A stretch of DNA of 64,000 nt from a virus (lineage: Duplodnaviria > Caudoviricetes). Position 1 is the stretch's first letter. Every line of letters begins with the position of its first letter. The stretch spans positions 128,001-192,000 of the IMG/VR virus record IMGVR_UViG_3300028374_000002; one strand, given 5' to 3'. Below, piece after piece: positions 5,212-64,000 of the stretch. Position numbers and translations under genes: made by a program. A model generated the notes under the pieces. It was not told the origin of the DNA, made no database searches, and was given only the letters and a program-made list of their open reading frames with translations.

Positions 5212-6441
5212 TTATCCAAATAAATCTTCTGCATCAGTTGCATCTGAGAATCCATCTGTATCATCATCATCAGCAGCATCGTTAATAGTCTTATTGAATT
5301 CTTTTTCAGTTTCTTCTATCTCATCCATAGATTTGAATCTAAAATAATCATTAACAATAGGATTCATTATCTCCAATATTTCATCTGTGAAGATATTTGC
5401 TTTATGTAATTTTTTAAGGAAAAATGATTTATCTAAATGCCTCACGTAGTATTTATTACCACCTGGTTTAAATGATAGCTCACCTGTATCCTTATCAACT
5501 TCCATCTTACCCTTGGCTATTCCTATCTCTTTAAAGTATTCAGGTCTACAGAACGCTTCTAAGCCAGTATATGGATTCATACCATCTACGAACGAAATAT
5601 CAAATCTTATTTTCTTAGGCTTAGCTAATCTATTTTTGCTAGTTTTAAAGAGAACGTTGATACCAGATTGTCCAAGATCCATATCATCCTCATCACCAGT
5701 TTTTAACTTAGACTTAGATAAGAATCCAATAACAGATGCAGAATATAAAAGTCCATTACCACCTCTTAACATCTCTTTTGGGAACATGTCTAGTGTTCTG
5801 TATGTTTGGTTTATAACTAGAAATGGTATTTTTAAAATACCTAAATCTGTATTTAAACTTCTAAACATAGAACTTAAGGCTTTTGCCTTTGTCATATCTT
5901 GTTTTATATCACCTTTTAATAAATCTAGCTTCTCTTTATTAGATGCCATTTGACCTAGTGAATCCAATACTAGAAGTATTTTGGGTAGATTGCTCCCAGC
6001 CATCTTTTGGTCTTTTAAGTCATCAACAAGCTGTGTTAATGTCATATTTATATCTTCGACTTTATTAGACCTAATAAGTCTAAATTTATCTAGATTGGTG
6101 TCTATGCCATAATTCGATAAATCTTGTAAGTCTATAGATTGTTCTGTGTCTATATAAATACATGAATATCCTAGTTTCTGTGCATTCTTCACAACAGAGT
6201 ATGCTAAAAAGGATTTACCAGATCCAGACTCCCCTGCAAATGCAGAAATTCTGTTAGTAGGTATACCACCGTTTAACATATGTGCTGAAAGTGCAGCATC
6301 TAGGATATATACACCAGTAGAAATAAAACTTCTTTCTTCTATTTCTTTCTCAATGTAAATAGGAACTTTCTTTGAAATATTATCTAGTATAGTTCCTACT
6401 TTACTAAATTCGAAATCTTTATTGCTTTTTTTCTTCGCCAT
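5212..6441 (-). CDS. uvsX: RecA/UvsX-like recombinase
   Basis: Walker A GESGSGKS, YIDTEQS, VLDSLG, GGNGLLYSAS; phage UvsX-like length. Confidence 0.9.
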   Translation of the reverse strand: MAKKKSNKDFEFSKVGTILDNISKKVPIYIEKEIEERSFISTGVYILDAALSAHMLNGGIPTNRISAFAGESGSGKSFLAYSVVKNAQKLGYSCIYIDTEQSIDLQDLSNYGIDTNLDKFRLIRSNKVEDINMTLTQLVDDLKDQKMAGSNLPKILLVLDSLGQMASNKEKLDLLKGDIKQDMTKAKALSSMFRSLNTDLGILKIPFLVINQTYRTLDMFPKEMLRGGNGLLYSASVIGFLSKSKLKTGDEDDMDLGQSGINVLFKTSKNRLAKPKKIRFDISFVDGMNPYTGLEAFCRPEYFKEIGIAKGKMEVDKDTGELSFKPGGNKYYVRHLDKSFFLKKLHKANIFTDEILEIMNPIVNDYFRFKSMDEIEETEKEFNKTINDAADDDDTDGFSDATDAEDLFG

Positions 6442-11498: not shown

Positions 11499-11518
11499 CC
11501 TATTTATATTCTTATGAA

Positions 11519-18799: not shown

Positions 18800-19156
18800 A
18801 TGATATTAACTAGAGAGGTCTCTATCAAGATAAGTGAGTCTAACTTTCAATACTATGATAACTTAGGATATGATGTAACAATTGGTGAGTACTTATTAAT
18901 ACCAATAGATTTACTATCCAGGGGATCACATAGAGAGATAAAGTGTAAGTGTGATACTTGTGGTGTTGAGAAAGATGTGTTATTTAAAAACTATGTTAAA
19001 TATGGTAATAAATGGGGTGAATATTTTTGTAGAAAGTGTTCAGAATTTAAAAGAAAGAAAACGCTTAAAAGAAATTTTGGTGTAGATTATCCTATTCAAA
19101 ATGAAGATTTAAAAAAGAAAATAAAATCATCTAGTTCTTCTAAAGAAAAATCTTAA
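18800..19156 (+). pseudogene. Stand-alone or truncated N-terminal module of the Hef-like family
   Basis: Resembles the N-termini of 25251-27035 and 29396-31132 (YYxxLGY..LSRGSH..CxCDxC, FGVDYP) but has no nuclease domain; abuts the convergent LRR gene. Confidence 0.55.
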
Positions 19157-19917
19157 TCAATAACATTATATCCATCTATTCCCCTAACTTTATCTATAGG
19201 TGGTACTTCAAATCCAAAACCATCTAAAAAGCTATAAAGCCTATCGTATAGAATAGTGTTTTTGCCTCTTATAACTTCAAATTCTTGAAATTCTTCGATT
19301 AGTTCTTCATCTGTAAGAGAATTGTTTCTAATCTCACCCATCATAGGTTGATTTTTAAAATAATTATATAGGTAGAATAATGGATTACCATACATTTTTA
19401 TATCCCCACCAACTTCTGGAAATCCTTCAAATGATGTTATGTTATTATTACTAATGTCTAAATCCCCCTCTATTCTTTTTGATATATAATCAAACGATTC
19501 TATTTTATTGTTACCACAAAACAGACCACCGTTTATAACTTCTGGTAGATATTTAAAACTTTTTATTTCATTACCAGCAAAGTCATAATGATGACCTACT
19601 TTACTAGGACCACCTTTAAGTGTTTTTAGATTATTCATAGCACAACTATAATCACCACCAACCTCTGTTGGTCCATTATTTAGGCTAAATATACCTGACT
19701 TGTATGCATTAAAAGAAAATTTAACTTTATTTATTTTTATAGGTAGCATATATCCAACTTTATCAAATATAGAGGTTTGGAAGTTATCATTTATATCTAT
19801 TGAGTAGTCATCATTTATAGTATAGTTTACTATACCGTGTGTTGTAACAAATTCTTTTATTTGGCTTATCTTTTCTTTATCACTTTTAAAGTCCTCATAT
19901 AATTTAATATTTCCCAC
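19153..19917 (-). CDS. Dispersed member of the 21-aa LRR family
   Basis: MGNIKLYEDF start, NYTINDDYSIDI cap, L..L.GGP..VGG.Y.C..N repeats, EFEVIRG..ILYDRL..F cap. Confidence 0.8.
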   Translation of the reverse strand: MGNIKLYEDFKSDKEKISQIKEFVTTHGIVNYTINDDYSIDINDNFQTSIFDKVGYMLPIKINKVKFSFNAYKSGIFSLNNGPTEVGGDYSCAMNNLKTLKGGPSKVGHHYDFAGNEIKSFKYLPEVINGGLFCGNNKIESFDYISKRIEGDLDISNNNITSFEGFPEVGGDIKMYGNPLFYLYNYFKNQPMMGEIRNNSLTDEELIEEFQEFEVIRGKNTILYDRLYSFLDGFGFEVPPIDKVRGIDGYNVID

Positions 19918-29367: not shown

Positions 29368-29400
29368 AAAAAAGCTCTTGAATAACAAGAGCTTTTTAAT
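29368..29400. terminator. Terminator hairpin, copy 1 of a 33-bp direct repeat
   Basis: AAAAAAGCTCTTG-AATAA-CAAGAGCTTTTT-AAT. Confidence 0.8.
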
Positions 29401-41991: not shown

Positions 41992-42009
41992 TTTTTTTAT
42001 TATTTTTAT

Positions 42010-43005: not shown

Positions 43006-43075
43006 AATTTATTCTGTTTTATTATTAAATGCTTTTATATATAAAAAGATGTTGGCTTGTTATCAAATAGGTAAA

Positions 43076-49801: not shown

Positions 49802-52800
49802 ATGGCAAATATTCAAATTGGCAAGTACAAAAGACCAGGTATATTCATAGAAGAATTTGATCAGTCAGTAAATTCATCACCAACAGTAGATGGGATAACT
49901 AACCTCGTTATAGGTACTTCTAAAAAAGGACCAGTTAACACACCAGTAAGATTGACAAATATAAATGATTTAGAATCAGTTTTTGGACAAATAGACAGAG
50001 GTATGGAAAGAAAAGGATCATTCTTTCATAGAACGATTTCTAAGATGTTAGAAACTTCACCAGTTTTTGCATTGAATTTACTCTCAACTAATGACGAATT
50101 AGACACAATTAAATTTAAAACATTGTCAGCTTCTGCTGGTACAAATAATGATGTTTTGAAAGAAGGACCTTATAGAAGAGTTTTCGACACAACAGGCTTT
50201 TGGAGAAGGGATACTGAATCTTTCTTAAACTTAACAGATGATAATCAAAGAGCATTTAGCTTAACAAACCTATCTGATAAGACAGTAACTGCATTCGTTT
50301 TTAAATCAAGACTAAGTGGATTTGATAGAACTTTGTTAGAATGGTACGGGTCAGAAGATAGAATACCACCATATGTATCTAGTAAAGACTACGCAGCAGA
50401 CTACCTAGTAGATGTTGTTTTAGTAAGTGGGGATTGGTCAGATTACCAATCACTAGCGGTTGATAACAGATGGAGTAGCTATTTCAATAATAATGGTCTT
50501 ATAAAAGAAAGAGTAAGAGATTTTGCTAATGATAGAAATATTAATCTTCTAGAATACTATGAAGGTCTTTCACTTATTCCTTTTTTCAGAGATACAAATG
50601 GAAATAACATATTTATAGAAACTATTATAAACAGAGATACTGATAGAACTGGCTTATTCTGTGCATTTAATAATGATGCAGTAGAGGTTGATTCTTATAA
50701 TGGTTTAATTGACTTGTTAGGAAATACTACAACTGATGAAGATGTAGAATCAATTGACTTTTTGTCTTATAATGAAACTTTAAAAGAGGAAATTGAATTT
50801 ATTCAAACTCCTTTAGACTTGCCTGGTAATGTAACTGCTATAATGGGTGGTGTAACAAATTACACAGGTCAAGCATCACATGCGTTTACAGATACTGATG
50901 TTTCACCTGCTCCATTAGTAGAGGGCAATATTGAAAACGGTAATAATAGAACAGCATATTTTGCAGAGGGATCAACTTTTGGATTAACAAGAACTGATTT
51001 CGTTATAACTGCTAGCAATATAGAATTAACATATGAAGCTATTGAAGGTGCATTTGTAGTTATTGGGGATAGAAAAATAGATATCACTGATGGTTCTTAT
51101 ACATTAATCTTAGATGCTTCACAATACCCAGAGGCTACTAGTGGTCCAGTATCATATAGTTCGGTAGCAACTGTTAATACAAAGGGTGAAATAGCATTAA
51201 AGAATAGTGATGATGAAAATAATATGCCTGTAGCAATTACTGAATTAGCATTAGGTAAAATTGAAATAGTTATAGATGGTATTGAATTTGATATTTCATC
51301 AAATATACAAGACATAACAGTCGATGTAGCTGGCTTTGTAGACTTGGTGATTGGTGTTGATTATAGCGTAAGTTATACAGAGAATGGTAAATTTGAAATT
51401 GAATTTTTAGATACTGCAACAACTGTATCTCTTTCTAATTACCAACAATCTAGAAGATTTAAGATGTTTAACAGATTGGTTAGTGTAATTGATAATGTTA
51501 ACAAAGATAAAGTCCTTATGAGCTTAGGCTCTACTGGTTTTAATGTTAGCTTAGGAAATGTAACAATAGAAGATATAATTACTTCTACTAGCCAGAATAA
51601 GAAGTTTACATTGAATACACCATTAACAGAAGTTGAATTAGTGGATGTTCTTGCTGGATACTTAGTATTCTATACAGTAGATAATGAATTTATATTAGGA
51701 TCAGAAGGTGCTAAAACTAAAGGAGAGGTAGCATCAAACGAAGAAGGTGTAATTGGTAAATATTCTGATTTCTACGATGCATTTAATGACGGAGTTATAA
51801 ACACAAGAGATTCATTTGACCAAGTTGGTGTTGAGAATGGTGTATTTATGAAAATGTACTTAGAGGCTAATGGCGATATGATTTTTGAATCAACTGGTAA
51901 AGATATGTTAGCGACTGAGGCAATTGACGGTGATAACTTAACTAAATCTATTACAGTTAAATCAAAACTTGGTAATTTAAAACAAACTCTAGAATTAGAG
52001 GATGATGTTAATTACATTGAGACACCTAATAAGGTATTAATAGATGGGTCTAGATATACTGAGGTTAGAATAGGCGATTTCTTGAAATCTACAAAAACTC
52101 CTAGAGAATTAACTAGGATTATTTCTAAAAGAAGATATAATACTACTACTAATTTAGTTGAACTTACTTGTGATTCTGAAATATTAAAAGAAGATTTTAA
52201 TGGTGATAGACAAACAACAAGATTTGTATCAGTAGATAATTATGCTAATACATATAAAGGTTTAGTTTTTGAAGGATTTAAAGTAAAGGAGTCTTCATTA
52301 CCAGATGGTACAGAAGAAACTCAAAATAGAATACTAAACTTAGTAGCTAAAGGAACTCCCTTATTTAAAGCAGTAACTAATAAAGAAGCTATTGACTTTA
52401 GATATTTAATTGACTCTTTTGGACTTGGATTAGTAGAAAATTCTAAATCTCAATTGGTAGATATTTGTGGAGATAGATTAGATGCATTTGGATTTATAAA
52501 CATGCCTTCTTTAAGACAGTTTAAAAAATCGCCAAACTTTACAGATTTGGAAGGTGTATTAAGTGTTGAGTTCTTAGCAGATGGTGGTAATAAAGAAAGT
52601 CTAAATCCAGTTGGATATTCATTCCCACAAGGAGTAGGTGATACATCGGTTGGGTATTTCACACCTTATGTTACTGTAAATGATAATGGTCGTCCATTAG
52701 AGATGCCACCAGCATCTTATGTGGCTACAACTTATATGAGAAAGCATATTTCTAATATAACATCTATTACACCTTGGACAATAGCAGCTGGTGTTACAAA

Positions 52801-53293
52801 TGGTAGAATAACAAATATCACAGGTCTAGAAATGGACTTTACTAAAGAAGATATTGAGTTCTTAAATCAAGCACAAATTAACCCTATTGTTTTCAAAAGA
52901 AATAGAGGATATATAATTGAGACAGAGAACACTGCACAAACATTGTTTAATTCTGCACTATCTTTTATACATGTTAGAGAGGTTCTTATAGAACTTGAAA
53001 GAGAATTATCTAATATGTTATTGGATTACCAATGGAAGTATAATACTCCTGATGTTAGAGCAGAAATTAAACTAAGAGCAGATGTTATATGTGAGACTTA
53101 TGTGAGTAAGAATGGTTTATTCAACTTCTTTAATAAGATGGATGATGAAAATAACACACCAGAGATAATAGATAACCAAATTGGGGTGCTTGACACGTTT
53201 GTTGAACCGATACGCGCAATGGGAATCATTGTTAATAACATTACTATCCTTAGAACTGGTGCTATATCAGCAGGTGGATTTATAAATAGATAG
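49802..53293 (+). CDS. gp18: Tail sheath protein (gp18-like, enlarged)
   Basis: RPGIFIEEFD, GTSKKGPVNTP, C-terminal PWTIAAG..G, INPI, HVREVL.E.E, VEP.RA..I..N. Confidence 0.9.
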   Translation: MANIQIGKYKRPGIFIEEFDQSVNSSPTVDGITNLVIGTSKKGPVNTPVRLTNINDLESVFGQIDRGMERKGSFFHRTISKMLETSPVFALNLLSTNDELDTIKFKTLSASAGTNNDVLKEGPYRRVFDTTGFWRRDTESFLNLTDDNQRAFSLTNLSDKTVTAFVFKSRLSGFDRTLLEWYGSEDRIPPYVSSKDYAADYLVDVVLVSGDWSDYQSLAVDNRWSSYFNNNGLIKERVRDFANDRNINLLEYYEGLSLIPFFRDTNGNNIFIETIINRDTDRTGLFCAFNNDAVEVDSYNGLIDLLGNTTTDEDVESIDFLSYNETLKEEIEFIQTPLDLPGNVTAIMGGVTNYTGQASHAFTDTDVSPAPLVEGNIENGNNRTAYFAEGSTFGLTRTDFVITASNIELTYEAIEGAFVVIGDRKIDITDGSYTLILDASQYPEATSGPVSYSSVATVNTKGEIALKNSDDENNMPVAITELALGKIEIVIDGIEFDISSNIQDITVDVAGFVDLVIGVDYSVSYTENGKFEIEFLDTATTVSLSNYQQSRRFKMFNRLVSVIDNVNKDKVLMSLGSTGFNVSLGNVTIEDIITSTSQNKKFTLNTPLTEVELVDVLAGYLVFYTVDNEFILGSEGAKTKGEVASNEEGVIGKYSDFYDAFNDGVINTRDSFDQVGVENGVFMKMYLEANGDMIFESTGKDMLATEAIDGDNLTKSITVKSKLGNLKQTLELEDDVNYIETPNKVLIDGSRYTEVRIGDFLKSTKTPRELTRIISKRRYNTTTNLVELTCDSEILKEDFNGDRQTTRFVSVDNYANTYKGLVFEGFKVKESSLPDGTEETQNRILNLVAKGTPLFKAVTNKEAIDFRYLIDSFGLGLVENSKSQLVDICGDRLDAFGFINMPSLRQFKKSPNFTDLEGVLSVEFLADGGNKESLNPVGYSFPQGVGDTSVGYFTPYVTVNDNGRPLEMPPASYVATTYMRKHISNITSITPWTIAAGVTNGRITNITGLEMDFTKEDIEFLNQAQINPIVFKRNRGYIIETENTAQTLFNSALSFIHVREVLIELERELSNMLLDYQWKYNTPDVRAEIKLRADVICETYVSKNGLFNFFNKMDDENNTPEIIDNQIGVLDTFVEPIRAMGIIVNNITILRTGAISAGGFINR

Positions 53294-53315
53294 TAAATAG
53301 ATAATAAATAATTAC

Positions 53316-53348
53316 AAACCTCCATTTTAATCTAATGGGGGTTTTTTT
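53316..53348 (+). terminator. Intrinsic terminator after the sheath gene
   Basis: AAACCTCCATT...AATGGGGGTTTTTTT. Confidence 0.65.
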
Positions 53349-53399
53349 AATTAAACAAACTATTTAAAAAGCATATAACATATAAATGAAAACTATCTT

Positions 53400-55100
53400 A
53401 TGATAAGCAAAGATTTCTTATATAATTATAAATTTGATAATAAGTCTGGTAAAATGTCTATGGAAAAGTATGTTTCAAAGAACTTTTTTGATGATTATAC
53501 ATACATAGTCAAATATTGTGAAGATAATAATATAAATCATCTATGTTTTAAAGAAAAGGTATATCATGTTATAAATGATATAAAGACAGATGTCATTTGT
53601 GTCAATGAGTTGTGTGATAATCTAGTAAAATTTAAAAACTCATCTATGGGGTACTATGATTACTGTTCTAACAAATGTATAGGTAGTGATGATAAAATAA
53701 AAAAGAAAAAAGAAAACACCAATTTAAAAAAATTTGGACATAAACACGCAGCACATAGTGAGCATGTTAAGGCAATAACTTCAAAAAAATATGAAAACCG
53801 AACAAATTCTTATAAAAAAAGTATCTTAAATAAGAGGATAAAAACACTAAATGATAGGTATGGTGTTAATAATGTAGCAAGTATAGATGGTCTTTTAGAA
53901 AGAAGAGTCGAGTCTTTTAAGAAAAATATAGATGCATACAAAGCATCATATAAAAAAACATCCCTTGATAGATATGGTGTAGACCATCCTTGGAAAAATG
54001 AAAAAATACACAAAAAAAGCATTCTCAATTCAAAAATCACTAAAAATGAAAACTTGTATAAAAAAGTACTAGATAAAATACACACATATGATAACATACA
54101 CTTTATTAGTATAGATTATCACACTAGAGTAATAAGCCTACATTGCGATGTGTGTAATGAAGGGTTTAATATACATAGAGAATATTTGCATAACAGACAA
54201 AGTGTGGATAATGTAATATGTACAAAATGCAATCCAGTCAGTAGTAATATATCTGGTCTAGAGAAGGATTTAAAAATATATATAGAGAGCATATATGACG
54301 ATTTAATAATTGAAAATGATAGAAAAGTTTTAGGTGGCAAGGAACTAGATATATATTTACCAAATTCTAACATAGCATTTGAGTTTAATGGACTATATTG
54401 GCACAGTGAGATTAATAAAGCTAAGAAATACCATTATGATAAGACAAATATGTGCTTGAGTAAAGGTGTGTACCTTATGCATATATGGGAAGATGACTGG
54501 ATATTGAGGAAAGATATAATAAAATCTATCATATCATATAAGCTCAAGAAAACAATAGGTTCTATATATGCTAGGAAGTGTCTAATTAAAACAGTCAACA
54601 CAGAAGATAGTAGAATATTTATGGATAATAATCATATACAGGGATATTCTAATTCTAATATAAAATTAGGTCTATATCACAAAGATACCTTAGTATCACT
54701 TATGTGTTTCTCTAGACCAAGGGGTGGATCTGATAATGAATATGAATTAATTAGGTTTTGTAATCTATTAAAAACAAATGTTGTTGGTGGTGCTAGTAAA
54801 CTATTCAATTATTTATTAAAACAGTATAGTGTTAGCAGTGTTATCTCATTTTCAGACACCTCTATGTTCGATGGCTCATTATATGAAAAATTGGGATTTG
54901 AACATACTAAAAATGTACCAATCGATTACAAATGGATTATTGGAAATAGAAGGTGTCATAAATCTAAGTATAGAAAATCACAGCTTATAAAAATGGGTTA
55001 TGATATAGATAAATCTGAAAAGGAAATAATGTATGAAGATGTTATAAGTTATAGAATATGGGACTGTGGGAAGGTCAAGTGGATTTATAAAACGCTATAG
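53400..55100 (+). CDS. Hef-like homing endonuclease
   Basis: YGVNN/YGVDH repeats; LDIYLPNSNIAFEFNGLYWHSE; HIWEDDW; YELIRFC. Confidence 0.75.
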   Translation: MISKDFLYNYKFDNKSGKMSMEKYVSKNFFDDYTYIVKYCEDNNINHLCFKEKVYHVINDIKTDVICVNELCDNLVKFKNSSMGYYDYCSNKCIGSDDKIKKKKENTNLKKFGHKHAAHSEHVKAITSKKYENRTNSYKKSILNKRIKTLNDRYGVNNVASIDGLLERRVESFKKNIDAYKASYKKTSLDRYGVDHPWKNEKIHKKSILNSKITKNENLYKKVLDKIHTYDNIHFISIDYHTRVISLHCDVCNEGFNIHREYLHNRQSVDNVICTKCNPVSSNISGLEKDLKIYIESIYDDLIIENDRKVLGGKELDIYLPNSNIAFEFNGLYWHSEINKAKKYHYDKTNMCLSKGVYLMHIWEDDWILRKDIIKSIISYKLKKTIGSIYARKCLIKTVNTEDSRIFMDNNHIQGYSNSNIKLGLYHKDTLVSLMCFSRPRGGSDNEYELIRFCNLLKTNVVGGASKLFNYLLKQYSVSSVISFSDTSMFDGSLYEKLGFEHTKNVPIDYKWIIGNRRCHKSKYRKSQLIKMGYDIDKSEKEIMYEDVISYRIWDCGKVKWIYKTL

Positions 55101-55132
55101 ATATATTCCTAACCAAACTCAACTTACCTATT

Positions 55133-55141
55133 TAATATATA
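55133..55141 (+). promoter_or_regulatory. Late-promoter-like TAATATATA heading the LRR array
   Basis: Same 9-mer and 4-nt spacing to the start codon as at many other genes in the window. Confidence 0.65.
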
Positions 55142-55145
55142 GGTT

Positions 55146-55814
55146 ATGAAACATATAAAACCTTATAAAATATTCGAGAGTACAAGTCTTAACTTCCCAA
55201 CTACAAGAGAGGAAGTTATAGAAGTGTGTAAAAAATATAGAATAAAAAACTACACTATCAATGACGATTTAAGTATTGATGTTGATGGTGATGTTGAATT
55301 AGATAGCAGAAATTTAGAATACTTACCACTTAAATTTAATTATGTAAATGGTCATTTTGATTGTGCTTATAATAGATTAGAAACATTAGAAGGTTGTCCA
55401 CAAACAGTAGGTGGTTATTTTTTTTGTTTTGAAAATGAACTAAAGACATTAGAAGGTAGTCCACAAACAGTAGGTGGTGATTTTGGTTGTTCACTTAATG
55501 AATTAATAACATTAGAAGGTAGCCCACAAACAGTAAATGGGAATTTTCTTTGTTTTGGAAATGAATTAAAAGACTTAGAATACTTCCCAGAAGTAATTGG
55601 TAATGTATACATAAAGGAAAATCCAGTAGATTTATTAGTACATACTTTTATCGAAACTGCTGATAGTTTTATGATAGAAGACTTCATAGATTATGAGATA
55701 GTTAGAAACAGAGATACTGTTATGTTAGATAGATTACAAACATTCATAAGGGATAATGATTTAAAGATGCCTAATTTAAAAGAAATTAAAAAACACTATA
55801 AAATAATAGAATAG
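55146..55814 (+). CDS. LRR array protein 1 (222 aa)
   Basis: 21-aa repeats L..LEGxPQTVGGxFxCxxN. Confidence 0.9.
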   Translation: MKHIKPYKIFESTSLNFPTTREEVIEVCKKYRIKNYTINDDLSIDVDGDVELDSRNLEYLPLKFNYVNGHFDCAYNRLETLEGCPQTVGGYFFCFENELKTLEGSPQTVGGDFGCSLNELITLEGSPQTVNGNFLCFGNELKDLEYFPEVIGNVYIKENPVDLLVHTFIETADSFMIEDFIDYEIVRNRDTVMLDRLQTFIRDNDLKMPNLKEIKKHYKIIE

Positions 55815-55816
55815 AA

Positions 55817-56359
55817 ATGAAACATATAAAACCCTACAAGATATTTGAGAGTACAAGTCCTAACTTCCCAACTACAAGAGAGGGAGTTATACAAGTTTGT
55901 GAAAAGTATAGAATAGAAAACTATACTATTAACAATGACTTAACAATTGATGTTGATGGTGGTGTTTATTTAGGGGAGAAAGACTTAAAACACTTACCAC
56001 TTAAATTTAATTATGTGAGTGGGATTTTCGTTTGCCGTATTAATAAACTAAAATCCTTGGAAGGTTGTCCTAAAACAGTAGGTGGTAATTTTTATTGTTC
56101 TAACAATGAATTAAGAGATTTAGAACATTTCCCAGAAGTAGATGGTATTATATCTATGAGAGAAAATCCAGTATATCTCTTAGTATACACCTTTATTCAG
56201 AATGCTGATAGTTTCCTAATAGAAGATTTTAACGACTATGAAATAGTTAGAAACAGAGATACTGTTATGTTAGATAGATTACAAACTTTTATAAGAGATA
56301 ATAATCTAAGGATGCCTGAGTTAGAACTCATTAAAAACCACTATAAAATAATAGAATAG
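55817..56359 (+). CDS. LRR array protein 2 (180 aa, two fewer repeats)
   Basis: 222 minus 42 aa. Confidence 0.9.
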   Translation: MKHIKPYKIFESTSPNFPTTREGVIQVCEKYRIENYTINNDLTIDVDGGVYLGEKDLKHLPLKFNYVSGIFVCRINKLKSLEGCPKTVGGNFYCSNNELRDLEHFPEVDGIISMRENPVYLLVYTFIQNADSFLIEDFNDYEIVRNRDTVMLDRLQTFIRDNNLRMPELELIKNHYKIIE

Positions 56360-56361
56360 AA

Positions 56362-57030
56362 ATGAAACACATAAAACCTTACAAAATATTTGAAAGCAAC
56401 AGTCCTAACTTCCCAACTACAAGAGAAGGTGTTATAGAAGCTTGTGAAAAGTGTTTAATAAATATCTACACTATCAATGATGATTTAAGCATCGATGTTG
56501 GTGATGATGTTTTTTTAACTAATAGAAGCTTAGAGTATCTACCACTTAAATTTAACCATGTGAAAGGTTCTTTTATATGTAGCTTTAATGAATTAAAAAC
56601 ATTGGAGGGTAGTCCACAAACATTAGGTGGACAGTTTGATTGCTGTCATAATAAACTAAAGACATTGGAGGGTAGTCCACAAACAGTAGATGGTAACTTT
56701 AATTGTTCTGCTAATATTCTAATGACATTAGAAGGTAGTCCAAAAACAATAAATGGTGATTTTGATTGTTTTGATAATGATTTAACTGATTTAGAATATT
56801 TCCCAGAAGTAAATGGGGAAATATTTTTAGGGATTAATAAAATAAGTCATTTAGTACATAGCTTTATCAAAAATGCTGATAGCTTTATGATAGAAGATTT
56901 TAATGATTATGAGATAGTTAGAAACAGAGACACTGTTATGTTAGATAGATTACAAACATTCATAAGGGATAACGATTTAGAGATGCCTGACTTAGAACCC
57001 ATTAAAAACCACTATAAAATAATAGAATAG
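56362..57030 (+). CDS. LRR array protein 3 (222 aa)
   Basis: Same caps and repeats. Confidence 0.9.
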   Translation: MKHIKPYKIFESNSPNFPTTREGVIEACEKCLINIYTINDDLSIDVGDDVFLTNRSLEYLPLKFNHVKGSFICSFNELKTLEGSPQTLGGQFDCCHNKLKTLEGSPQTVDGNFNCSANILMTLEGSPKTINGDFDCFDNDLTDLEYFPEVNGEIFLGINKISHLVHSFIKNADSFMIEDFNDYEIVRNRDTVMLDRLQTFIRDNDLEMPDLEPIKNHYKIIE

Positions 57031-57032
57031 AA

Positions 57033-57701
57033 ATGAAACATATAAAACCTTACAAAATATTTGAAAGCAACAGTCCTAACTTCCCAACTACAAGAGAGGA
57101 AGTTATAGAAGTTTGTAAAAAATATGATATAGAGAACTATACTATTAATGATGATTTAAGTATTGATGTTGATCATAACGTTATTTTAAATTTTAAAAGG
57201 TTAGAATATTTACCACTTAAATTTAATTATGTGAGTGGTGGTTTTAGTTGTCACCACAATAAACTAAAAACATTAAAAGGTAGTCCACAAACAGTAGGTG
57301 GTTTTTTTGAATGCTCTTTTAATTATTTAGAATCACTAGAAGGTTGTCCACAAACAGTAGGTGGTTATTTTATGTGTTATGATAACGAATTAAGAACACT
57401 AGAAGGTAGTCCACAAAAAATAGATGGTGATTTTAATTGTGGTGATAATTATTTAACTGATTTAGAACATTTCCCAGAAGTAAGTGGTGGTATATACATA
57501 AATACAAACCCAGTAAATTTACTAGTATATACCTTTATCAAAAATGCTGATAGCTTTATGATAGAAGACTTTATAGACTATGAGATAATTAGGAACAGAG
57601 ATACTGTTATGTTAGATAGGCTTCAAACATTCATAGAAGGATTTGATTTAGAAATACCTGACTTAGAAAAAATTAAAGAACACTATAAAATAATAGAATA
57701 A
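57033..57701 (+). CDS. LRR array protein 4 (222 aa)
   Basis: Same caps and repeats. Confidence 0.9.
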   Translation: MKHIKPYKIFESNSPNFPTTREEVIEVCKKYDIENYTINDDLSIDVDHNVILNFKRLEYLPLKFNYVSGGFSCHHNKLKTLKGSPQTVGGFFECSFNYLESLEGCPQTVGGYFMCYDNELRTLEGSPQKIDGDFNCGDNYLTDLEHFPEVSGGIYINTNPVNLLVYTFIKNADSFMIEDFIDYEIIRNRDTVMLDRLQTFIEGFDLEIPDLEKIKEHYKIIE

Positions 57702-57703
57702 AC

Positions 57704-58459
57704 ATGAAATATATAAAACCTTACAAAATATTCGAGAATGCTAGTCCTAACTTCCCAACTACAAGGGATGAAGTTATAGAAGTGTGTGAAAAGTATGAAA
57801 TAGAAAATTATACCATAAACGATGATTTAAGTATCGGTGTTGATGGTGATGTTCATTTATATAGTAAAAATTTAGAATACTTACCACTTAGATTTAGTTA
57901 TGTGAGTGGTGATTTTAGTTGTCACCACAATAAACTAAAAACATTAAAAGGTGGTCCACAAACAGTAGATGGTTATTTTTATTGCTTTAATAATAATTTA
58001 GAATCATTAGAAGGTTGTCCACAAACAGTAGGTGGGCGTTTTAATTGTTTTGAAAATGAACTAAAGACATTAGAAGGTAGTCCACAAACAGTAAATGGTG
58101 ATTTTAATTGCTTTAATAATAAACTAGAATCATTAGAAGGTAGTCCACAAACAGTAGGTGGGCATTTTAATTGTTCTTTTAATAAATTAACCGATTTAGA
58201 ATATTTTCCAGAAGTAAATGGTTCGGTAATTATATATGGAAATATAGTAAATTTATTAGTATATACATTTGTGGAAAATGCTAATACTTTCCTCATAGAA
58301 AATGCTAATGCTTTCCTCATAGAAGATTTTGTAGACTACGAGATAGTTAGAAACGGTGATACTGTTATGTTAGATAGATTACAAACTTTTATAAGAGATA
58401 ATAATCTAAGGATGCCTGAGTTAGAACCCATTAAAACCCACTATAAAATAATAGAATAG
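57704..58459 (+). CDS. LRR array protein 5 (251 aa)
   Basis: One extra repeat plus an 8-aa duplication (ENANTFLI/ENANAFLI). Confidence 0.9.
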   Translation: MKYIKPYKIFENASPNFPTTRDEVIEVCEKYEIENYTINDDLSIGVDGDVHLYSKNLEYLPLRFSYVSGDFSCHHNKLKTLKGGPQTVDGYFYCFNNNLESLEGCPQTVGGRFNCFENELKTLEGSPQTVNGDFNCFNNKLESLEGSPQTVGGHFNCSFNKLTDLEYFPEVNGSVIIYGNIVNLLVYTFVENANTFLIENANAFLIEDFVDYEIVRNGDTVMLDRLQTFIRDNNLRMPELEPIKTHYKIIE

Positions 58460-58460
58460 T

Positions 58461-59183
58461 ATGAAACATATAAAATTATACGAAGAATATAACAGTACTA
58501 AGGAAGTAGTAGAAGAAGTAATTAAATATGAGGTAATATTTGATGTAGTTGATGTATCAAGCGACCCAGTTGCTAAGGAAGAATTTGATAATTATGAAGA
58601 TGCCTTAGCATATTATGAGAAAACATATGAATATGATGATGGTGTATATAGGACAAGAACTCATTCAAAAATGCTAGATGAAATAACATATTCTGTATCC
58701 TATGAATATGACAGTGATAATGAGGATAAAGACGATGTTGATGATGATGATAAAAATTGGGATATAATCGATACTGATAATATGGAGTCAGAAGAATATC
58801 GAATTAATGATGATTCTGAAAATGTTTTGGAACAGATTGAGGATTGGTTCAAAGAAAAATATGATTCAAATAGGACAAAATACCATGAGATAGATGTTTA
58901 TTACAATGATGATGACTATAAGACTATACAAATTAGGTTTTCTAATCACACAGAAAACATTATGAACAATGATAGATTCAGAAGTAAGGATTATTACATA
59001 TCAGTTGTTGTTTCTGATTATGATGTTACTGATAGCAGATTTGGTATGTCAAATAGTTTTGAGAGAAGGAATAACGAACATGAACTAAAATATGGTAGTA
59101 GTGATGATACTATACAAATGGAAATAGATATTGATTTTTTAATTAAAGAGTTAAAAGAGGAAATATTAGAAGACTTTGGATAG
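58461..59183 (+). CDS. Highly acidic non-LRR protein embedded in the array (MKHIKLYEEY start)
   Basis: D/E-rich; contains IQIRFSNH; no LRR units. Confidence 0.8.
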   Translation: MKHIKLYEEYNSTKEVVEEVIKYEVIFDVVDVSSDPVAKEEFDNYEDALAYYEKTYEYDDGVYRTRTHSKMLDEITYSVSYEYDSDNEDKDDVDDDDKNWDIIDTDNMESEEYRINDDSENVLEQIEDWFKEKYDSNRTKYHEIDVYYNDDDYKTIQIRFSNHTENIMNNDRFRSKDYYISVVVSDYDVTDSRFGMSNSFERRNNEHELKYGSSDDTIQMEIDIDFLIKELKEEILEDFG

Positions 59184-59220
59184 TAAATACATTACAAAAT
59201 AAGTAATTAATATATACTTT

Positions 59221-59330
59221 ATGAAGCATATAAAACCTTATAAAAATATTAGACAGGTTACAAACATTTATAAGTGATAATGGTTTAGATATGCTGGATT
59301 TGAAAGAAATTAAAAAAAATAATAGAATAA
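59221..59330 (+). pseudogene. Collapsed LRR-gene remnant (N-cap joined out of frame to C-cap)
   Basis: MKHIKPYK... followed in another frame by LDRLQTFISDNGLDMLDLKEIKK; has its own TAATATATA at 59208-59216. Confidence 0.85.
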
Positions 59331-59332
59331 AC

Positions 59333-60001
59333 ATGAAACATATAAAACCTTATAAGATATTCGAGAGCAATAGTCCTAACTTCCCAACCACAAGAGAGGA
59401 AGTTATACAAGTGTGTGAAAAGTATGAAATAGAAAACTACACTATTAATGATGATTTAAGCATTGATGTTGATGATAACGTTCATTTAGGTTTTAAAATG
59501 TTAGAATATTTACCTCTTAAATTTAATTATGTAAGTGGTGGTTTTGGTTGTTATGAAAATAAATTAATATCATTAGAAGGTAGTCCACAAATATTAGATG
59601 GTTCTTTTCTTTGTTTTGAAAATGAATTAAAATCGTTAGAAGGTAGTCCATCAGTAGTGAATGGTAATTTTATATGTTATGAAAATGAATTAGAATCATT
59701 AGAAGGTTGTCCACAAACAGTAGGTGGTGATTTTTCTTGTTCTGATAATAAATTAAAAGATTTAGAACACTTCCCAGAAGTAAATGGTATCATATCTATG
59801 AGGGGAAATCCATTAGATTTATTAGTACATACCTTTATCAAAAATGCTGATATCTTTATGATAGAAGACTTTACAGACTATGAAATAGTTAGAAACAGAG
59901 ATACTGTTATGTTAGATAGATTAGAAACTTTCATTAGAGATAATGATTTAAAAATGCCTGACTTAGAAGGTATTAAAAAACACTATAAAATAATAGAATA
60001 A
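59333..60001 (+). CDS. LRR array protein 6 (222 aa; true start 59333)
   Basis: The ORF-track extension from 59291 belongs to the remnant C-cap. Confidence 0.9.
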   Translation: MKHIKPYKIFESNSPNFPTTREEVIQVCEKYEIENYTINDDLSIDVDDNVHLGFKMLEYLPLKFNYVSGGFGCYENKLISLEGSPQILDGSFLCFENELKSLEGSPSVVNGNFICYENELESLEGCPQTVGGDFSCSDNKLKDLEHFPEVNGIISMRGNPLDLLVHTFIKNADIFMIEDFTDYEIVRNRDTVMLDRLETFIRDNDLKMPDLEGIKKHYKIIE

Positions 60002-60013
60002 AATAGAATAAAC

Positions 60014-60682
60014 ATGAAACATATAAAACCTTATAAGATATTCGAGAGCAATAGTCCTAACTTCCCAACCACAAGAGAGGAAGTTATACAAGTGTGTGAA
60101 AAGTATGAAATAGAAAACTACACTATTAATGATGATTTAAGCATTGATGTTGATGATAACGTTCATTTAGGTTTTAAAATGTTAGAATATTTACCTCTTA
60201 AATTTAATTATGTAAGTGGTAGTTTTAATTGTTTTTATAATAAATTAACATCATTGGAAGGTTGTCCACAAAAAGTAGGTGGTAGCTTTGGTTGTTTTTA
60301 TAATAATTTAGAATCATTAGAAGGTTGTCCACAAACAGTAGGTGGTGATTTTTCTTGTTCTGATAATGAATTAGTATCATTGAAAGGTGGCCCACATACA
60401 GTGGGTGGTAATTTTAATTGTGTTTATAATAAATTAACAGACTTAGAACACTTCCCAGAAGTAAATGGAATTATAAGTATAAAGAAAAACACAGTATATC
60501 TATTAGTACATACTTTCATTGAAAATGCTAATAGTTTCCTCATAGAAGATTTTATAGACTATGAAATAGTTAGAAACGGAGACACTGTTATGTTAGATAG
60601 ATTACAAACATTCATTAGAGATAATGATTTAGAGATGCCTGACTTAGAAGAAATTAAAGAACACTATAAAATAATAGAATAA
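60014..60682 (+). CDS. LRR array protein 7 (222 aa)
   Basis: 5' region identical to protein 6 through LKFNYVSG. Confidence 0.9.
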   Translation: MKHIKPYKIFESNSPNFPTTREEVIQVCEKYEIENYTINDDLSIDVDDNVHLGFKMLEYLPLKFNYVSGSFNCFYNKLTSLEGCPQKVGGSFGCFYNNLESLEGCPQTVGGDFSCSDNELVSLKGGPHTVGGNFNCVYNKLTDLEHFPEVNGIISIKKNTVYLLVHTFIENANSFLIEDFIDYEIVRNGDTVMLDRLQTFIRDNDLEMPDLEEIKEHYKIIE

Positions 60683-60684
60683 AC

Positions 60685-61482
60685 ATGAAATATATAAAAC
60701 CTTATAAGATATTTGAGAATATATCTAACTATTTCCCAACTACAAGAGAAGAAGTTGTGGAAGTATGTATAAAATTTGAAATTATAAATTATACTATCAA
60801 TGATGATTTAAGTATAGATGTTGATGGTGATGTTGATATGGCGAATAAGGGAATAAGCAGCTTACCAATTAAATTTGGAAAGGTAAGTGGTGATTTTGCT
60901 TGTGAGTCTAATTATCAATTCTTTACACTAGAGGGATGTCCTTATGAGGTTGGTGGGAGTTTTAGTTGTAATACCAATGAACTTTTTTCACTAAGGGGGT
61001 GTCCTAAGATAATAGGAATTGATTTTGATTGTGGGTATTGTCCAATAGATTCATTGGAAGGTTGCCCAGAAACAGTAGGTGGTAATTTTTATTGTGAGCA
61101 TAGTGGTATAGAATCATTAGAATATATGACAAAAAATATTGGGGGATCTGTTATTTTAAACATGAATGAAATAAAATCATTCAAAGGGTGTCCAGATAGT
61201 ATATTTGGTAATTTGTATATAAGTGATAATAATATCACAGACTTAGAATATATACCAAATGTATCAGATTATATACACTTGCAAAGGAATCCAGTACACT
61301 CTATAGTAAACTCTTTCATTATAAAAGGTGATGATATGCTAATTGAAGATTTCCAAGACTATGATATAATAATTGATAATAAATCTATAAATTTGTTTAG
61401 GTTAGAAAATTTCTTTAAAGATTTTAACCTACCAATGCCAGACTTAAAAAAAATAAAAAAACATTATAAAATAATAGAATAA
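60685..61482 (+). CDS. LRR array protein 8 (265 aa, divergent)
   Basis: Same architecture, two extra repeats, diverged caps. Confidence 0.9.
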   Translation: MKYIKPYKIFENISNYFPTTREEVVEVCIKFEIINYTINDDLSIDVDGDVDMANKGISSLPIKFGKVSGDFACESNYQFFTLEGCPYEVGGSFSCNTNELFSLRGCPKIIGIDFDCGYCPIDSLEGCPETVGGNFYCEHSGIESLEYMTKNIGGSVILNMNEIKSFKGCPDSIFGNLYISDNNITDLEYIPNVSDYIHLQRNPVHSIVNSFIIKGDDMLIEDFQDYDIIIDNKSINLFRLENFFKDFNLPMPDLKKIKKHYKIIE

Positions 61483-61484
61483 GA

Positions 61485-62309
61485 ATGAAATATATAAAAC
61501 CTTACAAGATATTTGAGAGTGTTAGTCCTAATTTCCCAACTACAAGGGATGAAGTTATAGAAGTGTGTGAAAAGTATGAAATATATAACTACATCATTAA
61601 TGATGATTTAAGCATTAATGTTGAAGGTGATGTTGATTTAAATATTGATATCGATGAGGATATAGGCCTACAAAATATAAAATTAAAATATTTACCTGTT
61701 GTATTCAACTATGTAAAAGGCTCATTTTATTGTCAAGATAATGAATTAATATCACTAGAAGGTTCACCACGTGATGTTGGAATTTTTGATTGCTCTAATA
61801 ATAAATTAAAAACACTTGAAGGTGGGCCAGTGGATGTGCGTGGTTTTTTCAGTTGTGATGATAATAATTTAAAAACATTAAATGGGTCACCTTCTAATGT
61901 TTCTAGGTGGTTTTCCTGTTCTAATAATAATTTAAAAACATTAGAGGGTTCTCCAAATGTTGTAAACGGAGAGTTTGTTTGTCATAATAATGAGTTAGAA
62001 TCATTAAAGGGTATTACTAAAAATATAACTGATAGATTATATATAAACCACAATAATATTAAATCGTTGGATTACTTTCCAACAACAACAAGTATAATAT
62101 TCACACAAGGAAATCCAATAGATGTACTAATAAGCACTTTTATCAGAAATGATAACTTCAATGATCTTTTAGAAGAATTTGAAGAATTTGAAATATTAAG
62201 AAATGGTGTTGTTGTTTATCTAGATAGATTAAAAACCTTCATAGAAGGATTTGATTTGAAAATGCCTAGCTTAGATAGAATTAAACAAGAGTATAAAATA
62301 ATAGAATAA
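61485..62309 (+). CDS. LRR array protein 9 (274 aa, divergent)
   Basis: Same architecture. Confidence 0.9.
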   Translation: MKYIKPYKIFESVSPNFPTTRDEVIEVCEKYEIYNYIINDDLSINVEGDVDLNIDIDEDIGLQNIKLKYLPVVFNYVKGSFYCQDNELISLEGSPRDVGIFDCSNNKLKTLEGGPVDVRGFFSCDDNNLKTLNGSPSNVSRWFSCSNNNLKTLEGSPNVVNGEFVCHNNELESLKGITKNITDRLYINHNNIKSLDYFPTTTSIIFTQGNPIDVLISTFIRNDNFNDLLEEFEEFEILRNGVVVYLDRLKTFIEGFDLKMPSLDRIKQEYKIIE

Positions 62310-62311
62310 AC

Positions 62312-62980
62312 ATGAAACATATAAAACCTTATAAAATATTTGAAAGCAACAGCCCTAACTTCCCAACTACAAGGGATGAAGTTATAGAAGTGTGTGAAAA
62401 GTATGAAATATATAACTACATCATTAATGATGATTTAAGCATAGATGTTGCTGATGATGTTTTTTTAACTAGAAGCTTAGAGTATCTACCACTTAAATTT
62501 AACCATGTGGAAGGTTCTTTTTTATGTGGCTTTAATGAATTAAAAACATTGGAGGGTAGTCCACAAACATTAGGTGGGTTTTTTGATTGCTCTTATAATA
62601 AACTAAAGACATTAGAAGGTTGTCCACAAACAATAGTACGTGGTTCTTTTAAATGTTCTAATAATAATATAATGACATTAGAAGGTAGTCCACAAACAAT
62701 AAATGGTGATTTTATTTGTAGTGATAATAAGTTGGTAGATTTAGAACATTTCCCAGAAGTAAATGGTATAATAAATATAGAGAAAAACACAGTAAATTTA
62801 TTAGTATATACTTTTATTAATAAAGTGGATACTTTTATGATAGAAGACTTCATAGATTATGAAATAGTTAGAAACAGAGATACTGTTATGTTAGATAGAC
62901 TAGAGACCTTTATTAGTGATAATGATTTAATGATGCCAGACTTAAAAGAAATAAAAAAACATTATAAAATAATAGAATAA
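62312..62980 (+). CDS. LRR array protein 10 (222 aa)
   Basis: Middle region resembles protein 3. Confidence 0.9.
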   Translation: MKHIKPYKIFESNSPNFPTTRDEVIEVCEKYEIYNYIINDDLSIDVADDVFLTRSLEYLPLKFNHVEGSFLCGFNELKTLEGSPQTLGGFFDCSYNKLKTLEGCPQTIVRGSFKCSNNNIMTLEGSPQTINGDFICSDNKLVDLEHFPEVNGIINIEKNTVNLLVYTFINKVDTFMIEDFIDYEIVRNRDTVMLDRLETFISDNDLMMPDLKEIKKHYKIIE

Positions 62981-62982
62981 AC

Positions 62983-63714
62983 ATGAAACATATAAAACCT
63001 TACGAGATATTTGAGAGTGCTAGTCCTAATTTCCCAACTACAAGAGAGGAAGTTATAGAAGTGTGTGAAAGGTATAGAATAAAAAACTATACTATTAATG
63101 ATGATTTAAGTATCGATGTTGATGGTGATGTTTATTTAGTGGATAAAGGCTTAGAATACTTACCACTTAAATTTAATTATGTAAGTGGTAATTTTGTTTG
63201 TTCTGATAATAAATTAAAGACATTAGAAGGTAGTCCACAAACAGTAGGTGGTTATTTTTTTTGTTTTGAAAATGAACTAAAGACATTAGAAGGTAGTCCA
63301 CAAACAGTAGGTGGTACTTTTAATTGTTCTTACAATGAATTAATAACATTAGAAGGTAGCCCACAAACAGTAAATGGGAATTTTCTTTGTTTTGGAAATG
63401 AATTAATAACATTAGAAGGTAGCCCACAAACAGTAAATGGGAATTTTCTTTGTTTTGGAAATGAATTAAAAGACTTAGAATACTTCCCAGAAGTAAGTGG
63501 TAATGTATACATAAAGGGAAACACAGTATATCTATTAGTGTATACTTTTATTAGAACTGCTAGTAGTTTTATGATAGAAGATTTTATAGACTATGAAATA
63601 GTTAGGAACAGAGATACTGTTATGTTAGATAGATTACAAACATTCATAAGGGATAATGATTTAAAGATGCCTAATTTAAAAGAAATTAAAAAACACTATA
63701 AAATAATAGAATAG
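62983..63714 (+). CDS. LRR array protein 11 (243 aa)
   Basis: Exact 63-bp duplication, 63334-63396 and 63397-63459. Confidence 0.9.
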   Translation: MKHIKPYEIFESASPNFPTTREEVIEVCERYRIKNYTINDDLSIDVDGDVYLVDKGLEYLPLKFNYVSGNFVCSDNKLKTLEGSPQTVGGYFFCFENELKTLEGSPQTVGGTFNCSYNELITLEGSPQTVNGNFLCFGNELITLEGSPQTVNGNFLCFGNELKDLEYFPEVSGNVYIKGNTVYLLVYTFIRTASSFMIEDFIDYEIVRNRDTVMLDRLQTFIRDNDLKMPNLKEIKKHYKIIE

Positions 63715-63716
63715 AA

Positions 63717-64000
63717 ATGAAACATATAAAACATTACAAGATATTTGAGAGTACAAGTCCTAACTTCCCAACTACAAGAGAGGAAGTTATAGAAGTGTGT
63801 GAAAGGTATAGAATAAAAAACTATACTATTAATGATGATTTAAGTATCGATGTTGATGGTGATGTTCATTTATATAGTAAAAATTTAGAATACTTACCAC
63901 TTAGATTTAGTTATGTGAGTGGTGCATTTCTATGTTTTGATAATGAATTAAAAACATTAGAAGGTTGTCCACAAACAGTAGGTAGGTCTTTTTCCTGTTC
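63717..64000 (+). CDS. LRR array protein 12 (partial, runs off the window)
   Basis: MKHIKHYKIFESTSPNFPTTREEV... open to the end of the window. Confidence 0.85.
   Translation, partial: MKHIKHYKIFESTSPNFPTTREEVIEVCERYRIKNYTINDDLSIDVDGDVHLYSKNLEYLPLRFSYVSGAFLCFDNELKTLEGCPQTVGRSFSC

Follow-up and report, generated by a model that had tools for sequence, protein, structure and literature searches.

Mosaic leucine-rich repeat genes in the tandem arrays of a huge-phage genome fragment

Three arrays of leucine-rich repeat genes

The window, by which we mean the whole 64,000-nucleotide (nt) stretch of phage DNA analyzed here, corresponds to bases 128001-192000 of the IMG/VR record IMGVR_UViG_3300028374_000002, and coordinates marked "window" count from its first letter. 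The record is linear, 201,264 bp long and 28.8% GC, and CheckV estimated that it represents ~28% of a genome. In its tail sheath, it shares 64% and 58% identity with uncultured huge phages of 635-642 kb, which belong to the Mahaphage clade group and for which Bacteroidetes hosts have been predicted (Al-Shayeb et al., PMC7162821). The record carries 24 intact paralogs of a leucine-rich repeat (LRR) gene family, spread over three tandem arrays. Array A consists of 2 genes on the minus strand (genome 831-2233) and array B of 10 genes (genome 61424-68832). Array C, with which we are mainly concerned, consists of 12 plus-strand genes, C1-C12, which lie head to tail and mostly 2 nt apart from window 55146 onwards, and runs past the end of the window to 64328. 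The original prediction had described a recombining array at window 55146-64000; this array is real, but it does not end at 64000, and two more are present in the genome. Two divergent, isolated relatives of the family also lie in the record outside the arrays, one of them at window 19153..19749 on the minus strand (E = 6e-41 with the hidden Markov model of the family).

The family proteins share a plan in which a 69-residue N-terminal part is followed by 1.5-9.5 repeat units, a cap and an 80-residue C-terminal part. The unit of 21 residues (63 nt) has the pattern xFxCxxNxLxxLEGxPQTVxG, in which the LRR core LxxLxLxxNxL is written as xFxCxxNxL; F2, C4, N7 and L12 were invariant in 73 units, and L9 was conserved in 72 of the 73. 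A profile made from 22 paralogs matched the cysteine-ladder LRR of Listeria Internalin-J (3bz5) in 3 stretches (E = 1.9e-15, 60 bits) and the LRRs of IpaH7.8 and IpaH9.8 with E values of 2.6e-5 to 1.5e-4. A confident AlphaFold2 model (predicted local distance difference score, 91.9) showed two short strands per unit and a disordered segment at residues 1-12, and the top Foldseek matches in the PDB were all LRR domains (IpaH/SspH), each of them weak (E = 6e-3 or worse; template modeling score, 0.36-0.43). When the family was compared with Pfam, no LRR model scored above its cut-off, the sole match being LRRNT with 16 bits against a cut-off of 25.8; comparison with PHROGs gave one match only, to a PHROG of unknown function. 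The family resembles the Internalin-J and IpaH-SspH LRRs in its 21-residue repeat with a Cys ladder and an Asn ladder, but the match is confined to the repeat region, and the N- and C-terminal domains of the family have no counterpart there. To our knowledge, neither Internalin-J nor the IpaH effectors form recombining tandem arrays of this sort.

In metagenomes, we counted at least 1,420 distinct 90% clusters of the family, all of them unnamed; its end motifs had no relative in the 185,579 bacterial and archaeal genomes scanned. In a family tree across related contigs, the branching was star-like and mostly unresolved, and only one contig, the distant relative L028 (IMGVR_UViG_3300017917_004998), was genome-specific: its five tandem members (7879-11617) formed a clade of their own with support of 100/100. 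This clade indicates that the family was expanded or homogenized separately in distant lineages.

Tracts shared between paralogs and between strains

Many genes of array C share exact tracts with other paralogs. C6 (window 59333..60001) and C7 (window 60014..60682), both of 222 amino acids (aa), have 219 nt in common, comprising 12 nt upstream and the first 207 nt of the gene (59321-59539 for C6 and 60002-60220 for C7), after which identity falls to ~80%; C7 is a chimera. The joint between C6 and C7 carries a 10-nt duplication (AATAGAATAA), and a 60-nt tract is shared out of register between units 3-4 of C6 and units 2-3 of C7. In C6/C7 and in the array-B pair B2/B7, the N-domains are 100% identical and the bodies ~80-87% identical. 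C1 (window 55146..55814; 222 aa, 3.5 units) and C11 (window 62983..63714; 243 aa) share exact tracts of 83, 100 and 108 nt, located at 55396-55478, 55497-55596 and 55707-55814 of C1, which take in the complete unit YFFCFENELKTLEGSPQTVGG (63/63 nt) and the final 108 nt. C11 also contains an exact 63-bp tandem duplication at 63334-63459 (63334-63396 and 63397-63459), with period-63 identity that continues for 10 nt, to 63469, and it has 102 nt (63031-63132) in common with C12 (window 63717..64328, past 64000; 203 aa). C12, in turn, matches B9 of array B at 94.8% identity from end to end, despite a separation of 124 kb.

A 74-nt exact tract (nt 135-208) is common to C12, B9 and C5 (window 57704..58459; 251 aa, 4.5 units), and C5 has a 24-bp tandem duplication of its own (58274-58324). 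The first unit of C5 agrees with that of C4 (window 57033..57701; 222 aa) at 60 of 63 nt, with an exact run of 40 nt, and the first units of C3 (window 56362..57030; 222 aa) and C10 (window 62312..62980; 222 aa) likewise agree at 60 of 63 nt, with exact runs of 49 and 40 nt. C2 (window 55817..56359), the shortest paralog with 180 aa and 1.5 units, shares a 70-nt tract with C5 and tracts of 58-59 nt with B4 and B6. The tracts of a single gene point to different nearest paralogs. All six statements of shared sequence in the original prediction, concerning C6/C7, C1/C11, C4/C5, C5/C12, C3/C10 and the C11 duplication, hold in nucleotides as well as in protein.

Two genes behave differently. C8 (window 60685..61482), with 65-77% nt identity to the other paralogs, shares no tract of ≥45 nt with any of them, and C9 (window 61485..62309) shares an 83-nt tract at its 5′ end (61533-61615) with C10 (62360-62442). 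By domain, the two are 65-84% identical to other paralogs, have almost no shared tracts and are nearly invariant across the strains compared below. The array also holds two elements that are present in all strains. One is an open reading frame (ORF) between C5 and the relic, ORF240 (window 58461..59183, plus strand), which encodes an unrelated acidic protein and gives the array a fixed internal anchor. The other is a relic of a family gene (window 59221..59332, plus strand), in which an internal deletion has joined the first 25 nt to the last ~85 nt; another ~10 nt have been lost close to the stop, and read-through turns the relic into a leader of 14 codons before C6.

The shared tracts were then set against chance. 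For a column-shuffle null, the alignment columns were permuted among 18 canonical paralogs in 300 shuffles, keeping site-wise conservation, and the longest exact tract had a mean of 56 nt, a 95th percentile of 74 and a maximum of 81. The tracts observed among these paralogs were 208, 207, 140, 108, 105, 105, 93 and 85 nt, and 8 pairs had a tract of ≥80 nt compared with 0.01 expected. The unit-level identity network that the original prediction had proposed gave a background of 46/63 (standard deviation, 4), and only 7 unit pairs reached ≥60/63, thereby indicating that the shared cassettes are discrete outliers and not the repeat consensus. Congruence of unit trees with gene trees had been named as the outcome that would speak for simple duplication; instead, N- and C-domain distances were uncorrelated (r = 0.107, Mantel p = 0.20, two divergent copies omitted). 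The pairwise homoplasy index (PHI), in our own implementation, and a GENECONV-like test that permutes polymorphic sites were then run. PHI gave p = 0.0005 for the N+C concatenation, 0.0015 for seven 222-aa genes and 0.0005 for seven 243-aa genes at full length, and 0.006 for the C-domain alone. In the GENECONV-like test, 5 pairs were globally significant (p < 0.01), and 37 of 231 pairs had pairwise p < 0.01, where ~2 were expected. Together with the column shuffle, these tests reject simple duplication followed by divergence.

Between paralogs, dS ranged typically from 0.43 (N-domain) to 0.62 (C-domain), and dN/dS was 0.13-0.30. At such silent-site divergence the identical tracts are not attributable to protein-level constraint, and the two values indicate that the constant ends have been kept by purifying selection on old copies, on which the identical tracts are recent overlays. 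The exchange consists of sporadic short patches on a diverged old family and not of wholesale homogenization. Unit identity was 0.749 within genes and 0.748 between genes; such a star-like relation would fit long-term exchange among all units, and a single old duplication burst would fit this figure too.

Related contigs were found in IMG/VR by means of the tail sheath, about nine of them from other lake metagenomes; they are cited here by L numbers. They are 98.5-99.3% identical to the record over the 12-15 kb upstream of array C, and other contigs span the distal part of array C and the downstream flank at 94-99%. Three anchors were kept in all strains, namely ORF240, the divergent pair C8-C9 and a downstream 319-aa ORF, and the intervals that they bound differed in gene number. 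From the homing-endonuclease gene upstream of the array to ORF240, there are 5 genes in the record, 6 in L031 and L033, and 2 in L029 and L032; from ORF240 to C8, there are 2 in the record, 3 in L033 and 1 in L013; and from C9 to the flank, there are 3 in the record, while L012, L013 and L020 have one more, of 243 aa. Directly behind the endonuclease gene, seven forms of the first array gene occurred among nine contigs. Similarly, array B of L014 has 3 family genes beside a downstream flank that is 98.5% identical, compared with 10 genes in the record.

The endonuclease gene itself (window 53400..55100, plus strand; phrog_3339, E = 8e-106) lies between the tail sheath gene and the array, of which it forms the upstream boundary. 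It is dimorphic, a 566-aa or a 564-aa type being found at the same site, and similarity to the second strain group stops at window 53308, before the gene. Endonuclease type and first array gene were combined differently across contigs, L030, for example, having the type-2 endonuclease followed by a C1-like gene, and these recombinant combinations suggest that exchange between strains contributes.

We painted the strain genes with exact 24-mers of the record's paralogs. One gene of L033 consisted of the C2 N-domain, a C11 unit and the last 266 nt of C3, the latter without a difference. The positional ortholog of C7 in L033 (286 aa) shared the last 196 nt with C7, had three extra units and was only ~90% identical in its N-domain, which indicates that the conversion of the C7 5′ end by C6 postdates the split of these lineages. 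In the third array-C gene of L034, 214 nt were identical to the array-B gene B3. C4 was nearly intact in L013, L029 and L032, and the orthologs of C5 in three strains lacked exactly one 63-nt unit and carried small clustered patches. The C10 ortholog in L012 and L013 has a 5′ conversion patch, as judged in L013 from the clustering of 21 of 28 mismatches within the first 115 nt. In L013, C8 and C9 were >99% identical to the record, and the downstream flank was ~94% identical. That the divergent C8 and C9 hardly exchange and remain stable fits a dependence of exchange on homology.

The cleanest single event was found in L029 and L032, two contigs that differ by 0.2%. They showed 26 differing sites in 12.3 kb of flank and 5 in the remaining 4.1 kb, and 26 further sites lay within nt 134-240 of the second array gene, a single patch of 107 nt. 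The L032 version of this patch matches B2/B7, and both sides of the patch are unchanged between the two contigs. Judged from the sequences, this patch bears the classical signature of gene conversion.

Probable homologous exchange and the alternatives

An obvious alternative is that the family arose by duplication and divergence without any exchange, the cassettes being left over from recent duplication and from constraint on the repeat consensus. The consensus is indeed strongly conserved, the genome, at 29% GC, has biased codon usage, and the C12/B9 pair, 94.8% identical as whole genes, resembles a plain recent duplication. However, a sudden drop from 100% to ~80% identity within single genes is incompatible with duplication and clock-like divergence, N- and C-domain relationships are uncorrelated, and the PHI, GENECONV-like and column-shuffle tests were all significant; in addition, the tracts of one gene have different nearest paralogs, and constraint does not account for identity at silent sites, where divergence is typically 0.4-0.6. 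We therefore regard this explanation as extremely improbable. Equally little credence can be given to a dedicated diversifier, such as a diversity-generating retroelement or a programmed assembly of cassettes like that of lamprey variable lymphocyte receptors (VLRs), for which one could cite the concentration of variation at few codons per repeat (dN/dS 1.5-1.7) and the VLR-like sharing of units. No reverse transcriptase (PF00078) was found in the 201-kb record, itself ~28% of the genome. The adenine-directed mutagenesis of a retroelement, copied from a template repeat, would not spare adenines in the framework, yet those of the framework codons CCA, CAA, ACA and GTA hardly vary, and in the variable codons each of the three positions differs. 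Nor was an incomplete germline gene with flanking partial cassettes seen: each of the 24 genes forms a complete ORF that has both end domains, and there is one relic only. Silent sites of the framework were no more conserved than those of the N-domain (0.185 vs 0.187).

A different concern is that the mosaics are assembler chimeras of reads from different paralogs or from co-existing strains. Assemblers do struggle in the arrays, inside which many related contigs end; the arrays are known from short-read assemblies; and samples contain several strains. The endonuclease gene is not covered by Logan contigs in run X3, and in run X5 a unique piece of C4 has about half the flank depth. Against this, L031 and L033, which stem from separate metagenomes, agree with 100% identity across 4,366 nt that span the endonuclease gene and three array genes. 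L032 has the C6/C7 joint too, 10-nt duplication included, and the joint of L033 is near-identical, one base shorter. Identical repeats arranged as in C6/C7 and B2/B7 should allow a single path only, if all the sequence is to be used. At the donor switches in strain genes, the median identity tract was 12 nt long and the longest 62 nt, shorter than the final-round k-mers of common assemblers, and with such an assembler a mis-join would be unlikely; for these lengths alone we used a greedy donor tiling, whose median 28-nt tiles mostly reflect point divergence. To either side of the 107-nt patch, the L032 sequence differs from the B2/B7-like donor. We also compared window 50000-64000 with Logan contigs from four lake or salt-lake runs, in which uncovered parts carry no meaning. 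The contigs of run X1 agree fully with the flanks, and there the depth of unique segments from C3, C5, C8, C9 and C10 was 19-28x, compared with 20-21x for the flanks. (The 23 sequencing runs that hold 52-67% of the sampled words were not used as evidence.) Assembly error is thus improbable as the source of the mosaics, if less so than the two explanations above. Far more serious is the possibility that exchange takes place essentially between phage genomes in mixed infections, so that standing variation is reshuffled and recombination within a genome is minor. The different combinations of endonuclease type and first array gene (as in L030), the >99% identity of C8 and C9 in L013 beside a ~94% flank, and the at least 1,420 clusters in metagenomes all agree with it. 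However, identical tracts within the same genome (C6/C7, B2/B7, C1/C11 and C12/B9) require ectopic pairing at some time, and the C11 unit duplication and the 63-nt insertions and deletions are local events. The two routes are not exclusive, and the machinery would be common to both; as the essential route, mixed infection is a possibility that we take seriously without favoring it.

We consider it highly probable that the diversity of the arrays, with its signs of conversion and unequal crossover, is explained by general homologous recombination acting on dispersed homology, with no dedicated diversifier seen. Three types of event were recognized: non-reciprocal patches of ~20-220 nt; gains and losses of 63-nt units in register, together with the 24-bp duplication of C5; and gains and losses of whole genes. 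The original prediction had attributed combinatorial diversity to gene conversion or unequal crossover within the array. The statistical tests and the strain comparison support the process, but the restriction to one array was too narrow, because tracts are common to arrays ~120 kb apart (C12/B9, and the B3 tract in array C of a related strain) and haplotypes have apparently been reshuffled between strains. The same prediction had named two enzymes. A UvsX/RecA-like recombinase of 409 aa is encoded in the window at 5212..6441 on the minus strand (PF00154, 57.5 bits) and, by sequence, is a candidate for the strand-exchange enzyme; a RuvC-like resolvase was not found. Neither RuvC (PF02075) nor endonuclease VII (PF02945) had a match in the 201-kb record, ~28% of the genome. 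Pox_A22 (PF04848) had none there either, in a search that matched no control genome. Pfam and PHROGs scans of 19 ORFs revealed no resolvase; they identified the UvsX-like RecA, a NADAR protein, an HNH endonuclease, a fragment of the terminase large subunit and a head-closure protein.

In the mechanism that we propose, the shared ends and the conserved 63-bp framework would let the homologous-recombination machinery of the phage pair copies out of place. T4-like phages replicate through recombination, and a UvsX-type recombinase would act here presumably within recombination-dependent replication of many genome copies. Short-patch gene conversion (~20-220 nt) could then occur within arrays, between arrays and between co-infecting strains, while in-register unequal exchange or slippage would add or remove whole 63-bp units and unequal crossover whole genes. 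Selection would keep the copies as open reading frames and favor change at four or five ligand-facing residues per repeat, and the population would come to hold many combinations of binder genes on an otherwise near-identical genome. A recombination signal selected in the framework was also considered and was rejected on the silent-site mismatch, which was 0.185 in the framework compared with 0.187 in the N-domain and 0.228 in the C-domain, ~0.5 being expected from codon usage.

Several points weigh against this interpretation. PHI was not significant for the N-domain alone (p = 0.22), and most units are unique (~73% mutual identity), recent exchange being visible in a minority of the sequence. 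With only ~28% of the genome in the record, genes for a resolvase or a reverse transcriptase, or the donors of some tracts, may lie outside it. Which enzymes act is inferred, none being tied to the events, and intramolecular, sister-copy and inter-strain exchange all fit the data alike. Furthermore, all genomes compared are unphased short-read metagenome assemblies, in which many contigs break inside the arrays, and the Logan contigs are at most a few hundred bases long inside array C, bridging no paralog and reaching ≤36 letters on the sides of the joints.

Possible role, related systems and neighboring genes

Variation in the units was found at positions 1, 3, 5 and 6, and positions 8, 10 and 20 vary too. 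The first four correspond to x positions of LxxLxLxxN, and in LRR proteins these face the ligand. The dN/dS ratio was 1.5-1.7 at the variable positions, compared with 0.28 in the framework. No signal peptide was seen in the protein sequences of the family. The proteins have a common 11-residue start, MKHIKPYKIFE, which ends in I-F-E. Similar starts of ~10 residues were noticed on three ORFs unrelated to the LRR family: MKHIKLYEEY on ORF240 (window 58461-59183), MKNIKKFEAF (window 58-294) and MKHLKTFESF (genome 107526-107906, minus strand). The capsid targeting sequence of T4 is a short N-terminal tag that ends in (L/I)-x-E, and a tag of this type is present on the family, with similar ones on the three otherwise unrelated ORFs. 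From its sequence, the common start looks like a portable N-terminal signal. The T4 prohead protease (PF03420) had no match in the 201-kb record, in a search that matched no control genome either. With low confidence, we infer that the most likely role of the proteins is that of injected or intracellular binders of variable host proteins. More speculative, and in our view unlikely as a whole, is the idea of an adaptive-binder repertoire, in which a population-level, combinatorial LRR library would be carried into the host by means of the tag, each protein would neutralize a different variable defence or surface protein of the host, the ends and framework would be kept for exchange and the rate of recombination itself would be selected.

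Of the systems described so far, the nearest is the tandem LRR locus of Flavobacterium psychrophilum (Altae-Tran et al. 2020), which has up to 19 tandem genes with 2-14 LRRs of ~22 residues and one hypervariable face, and in which gene number, repeat number and repeat sequence are strain-specific, the flanks are conserved and there are nucleotide signatures of recombination (PMC10392669). The Bacteroidota setting is a further likeness, because the hosts predicted for the relatives of the phage are in that phylum (PMC7162821). In contrast to the phage family, the locus is bacterial and encodes proteins of the cell surface that carry a signal peptide and a signal for type-9 secretion, and its intergenic regions contain broken gene fragments joined at 1-5-bp microhomologies, a mark of illegitimate recombination (PMC10392669). 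In the phage arrays, the genes are 2 nt apart, there is a single relic, and the tracts look homology-driven.

Among genes of phages with T4-like recombination, the gp38 adhesins and distal tail-fibre genes of T-even phages also alternate conserved motifs with hypervariable segments, and exchange in or near the conserved motifs produces chimeras with new binding determinants, the population acting as a shared library (PMC3157838). However, gp38 is single-copy and is exchanged between phages, whereas here at least 24 paralogs per genome fragment exchange among themselves too, and its fold and repeat type are unrelated to those of the LRR family. The hyperplastic regions of T4-type phages undergo insertion, deletion and replacement of small genes through short conserved flanks (PMC2839356, PMC4122927), and the internal proteins of T-even phages form a diverse anti-defence set that shares only a short N-terminal tag (PMC3012670). 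Unlike in T4-type modular shuffling, homologous paralogs and sub-gene cassettes are exchanged here rather than unrelated genes. Homologous cassette exchange varies a binding or antigenic surface in lamprey VLRs, Borrelia vlsE, Neisseria pilE/pilS, the nucleotide-binding LRR gene clusters of plants and poxvirus accordions, and in the last two the copy number also shifts by unequal crossover. Compared with such gene-conversion repertoires, the phage arrays have no expression site with silent donors and no somatic program, and their diversity is inherited and population-wide; all array copies are intact and, to judge from their sequences, presumably expressed.

Tail-fibre mosaics and retroelement mutagenesis are known routes by which phages vary single host-recognition genes. 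A jumbo-phage review describes a 35-copy zinc-ribbon expansion in phage G; LRR families are unmentioned in the jumbo-phage reviews searched, and no account of LRR gene arrays or of such a repertoire in phages was found in the literature searched. The mechanism is therefore known; what is new, to the extent of our search, is its setting in a bacterial virus with a large LRR repertoire that is intact and recombining. A large inherited binder family that differs between otherwise 99%-identical strains is likewise undescribed for phage in that literature. A huge phage appears to spend part of its extra DNA on a fast-evolving repertoire, most likely for an arms race with the host. With three anchor-bounded intervals, the locus offers a natural system in which to measure ectopic recombination in phage populations; the L029/L032 pair suggests that inside the arrays one conversion event changes ~10x more bases than point mutation. 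The arrays also break assemblies of huge phages, and their products, compact binders on a constant scaffold, could interest protein engineers.

Some other features of the region deserve mention. A second variable spot was observed at window 41610-43239, covering the end of a 1115-aa ORF and a 331-aa ORF; L031, L033 and L036 are replaced or ~92% identical inside it and ≥98.6% identical on both sides. Just downstream of array C, a 552-aa ORF (genome 193656-195314) is similar in size to the homing endonuclease, and ORFs of 564-578 aa at window 11519-13222, 21919-23613 and 29396-31132 (minus strand), also endonuclease-sized, may be further copies of that endonuclease family. A 171-aa ORF (window 43076-43591, minus strand) matches only an N-terminal portion, positions 95-172 of the 347-position profile, of a terminase large subunit (phrog_5989, E = 2e-17) and may be a split or interrupted terminase gene. 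Finally, the gene for the NADAR-domain protein (PF08719, E = 4e-23) at window 6506-7006 on the minus strand directly adjoins that of the UvsX-like recombinase.

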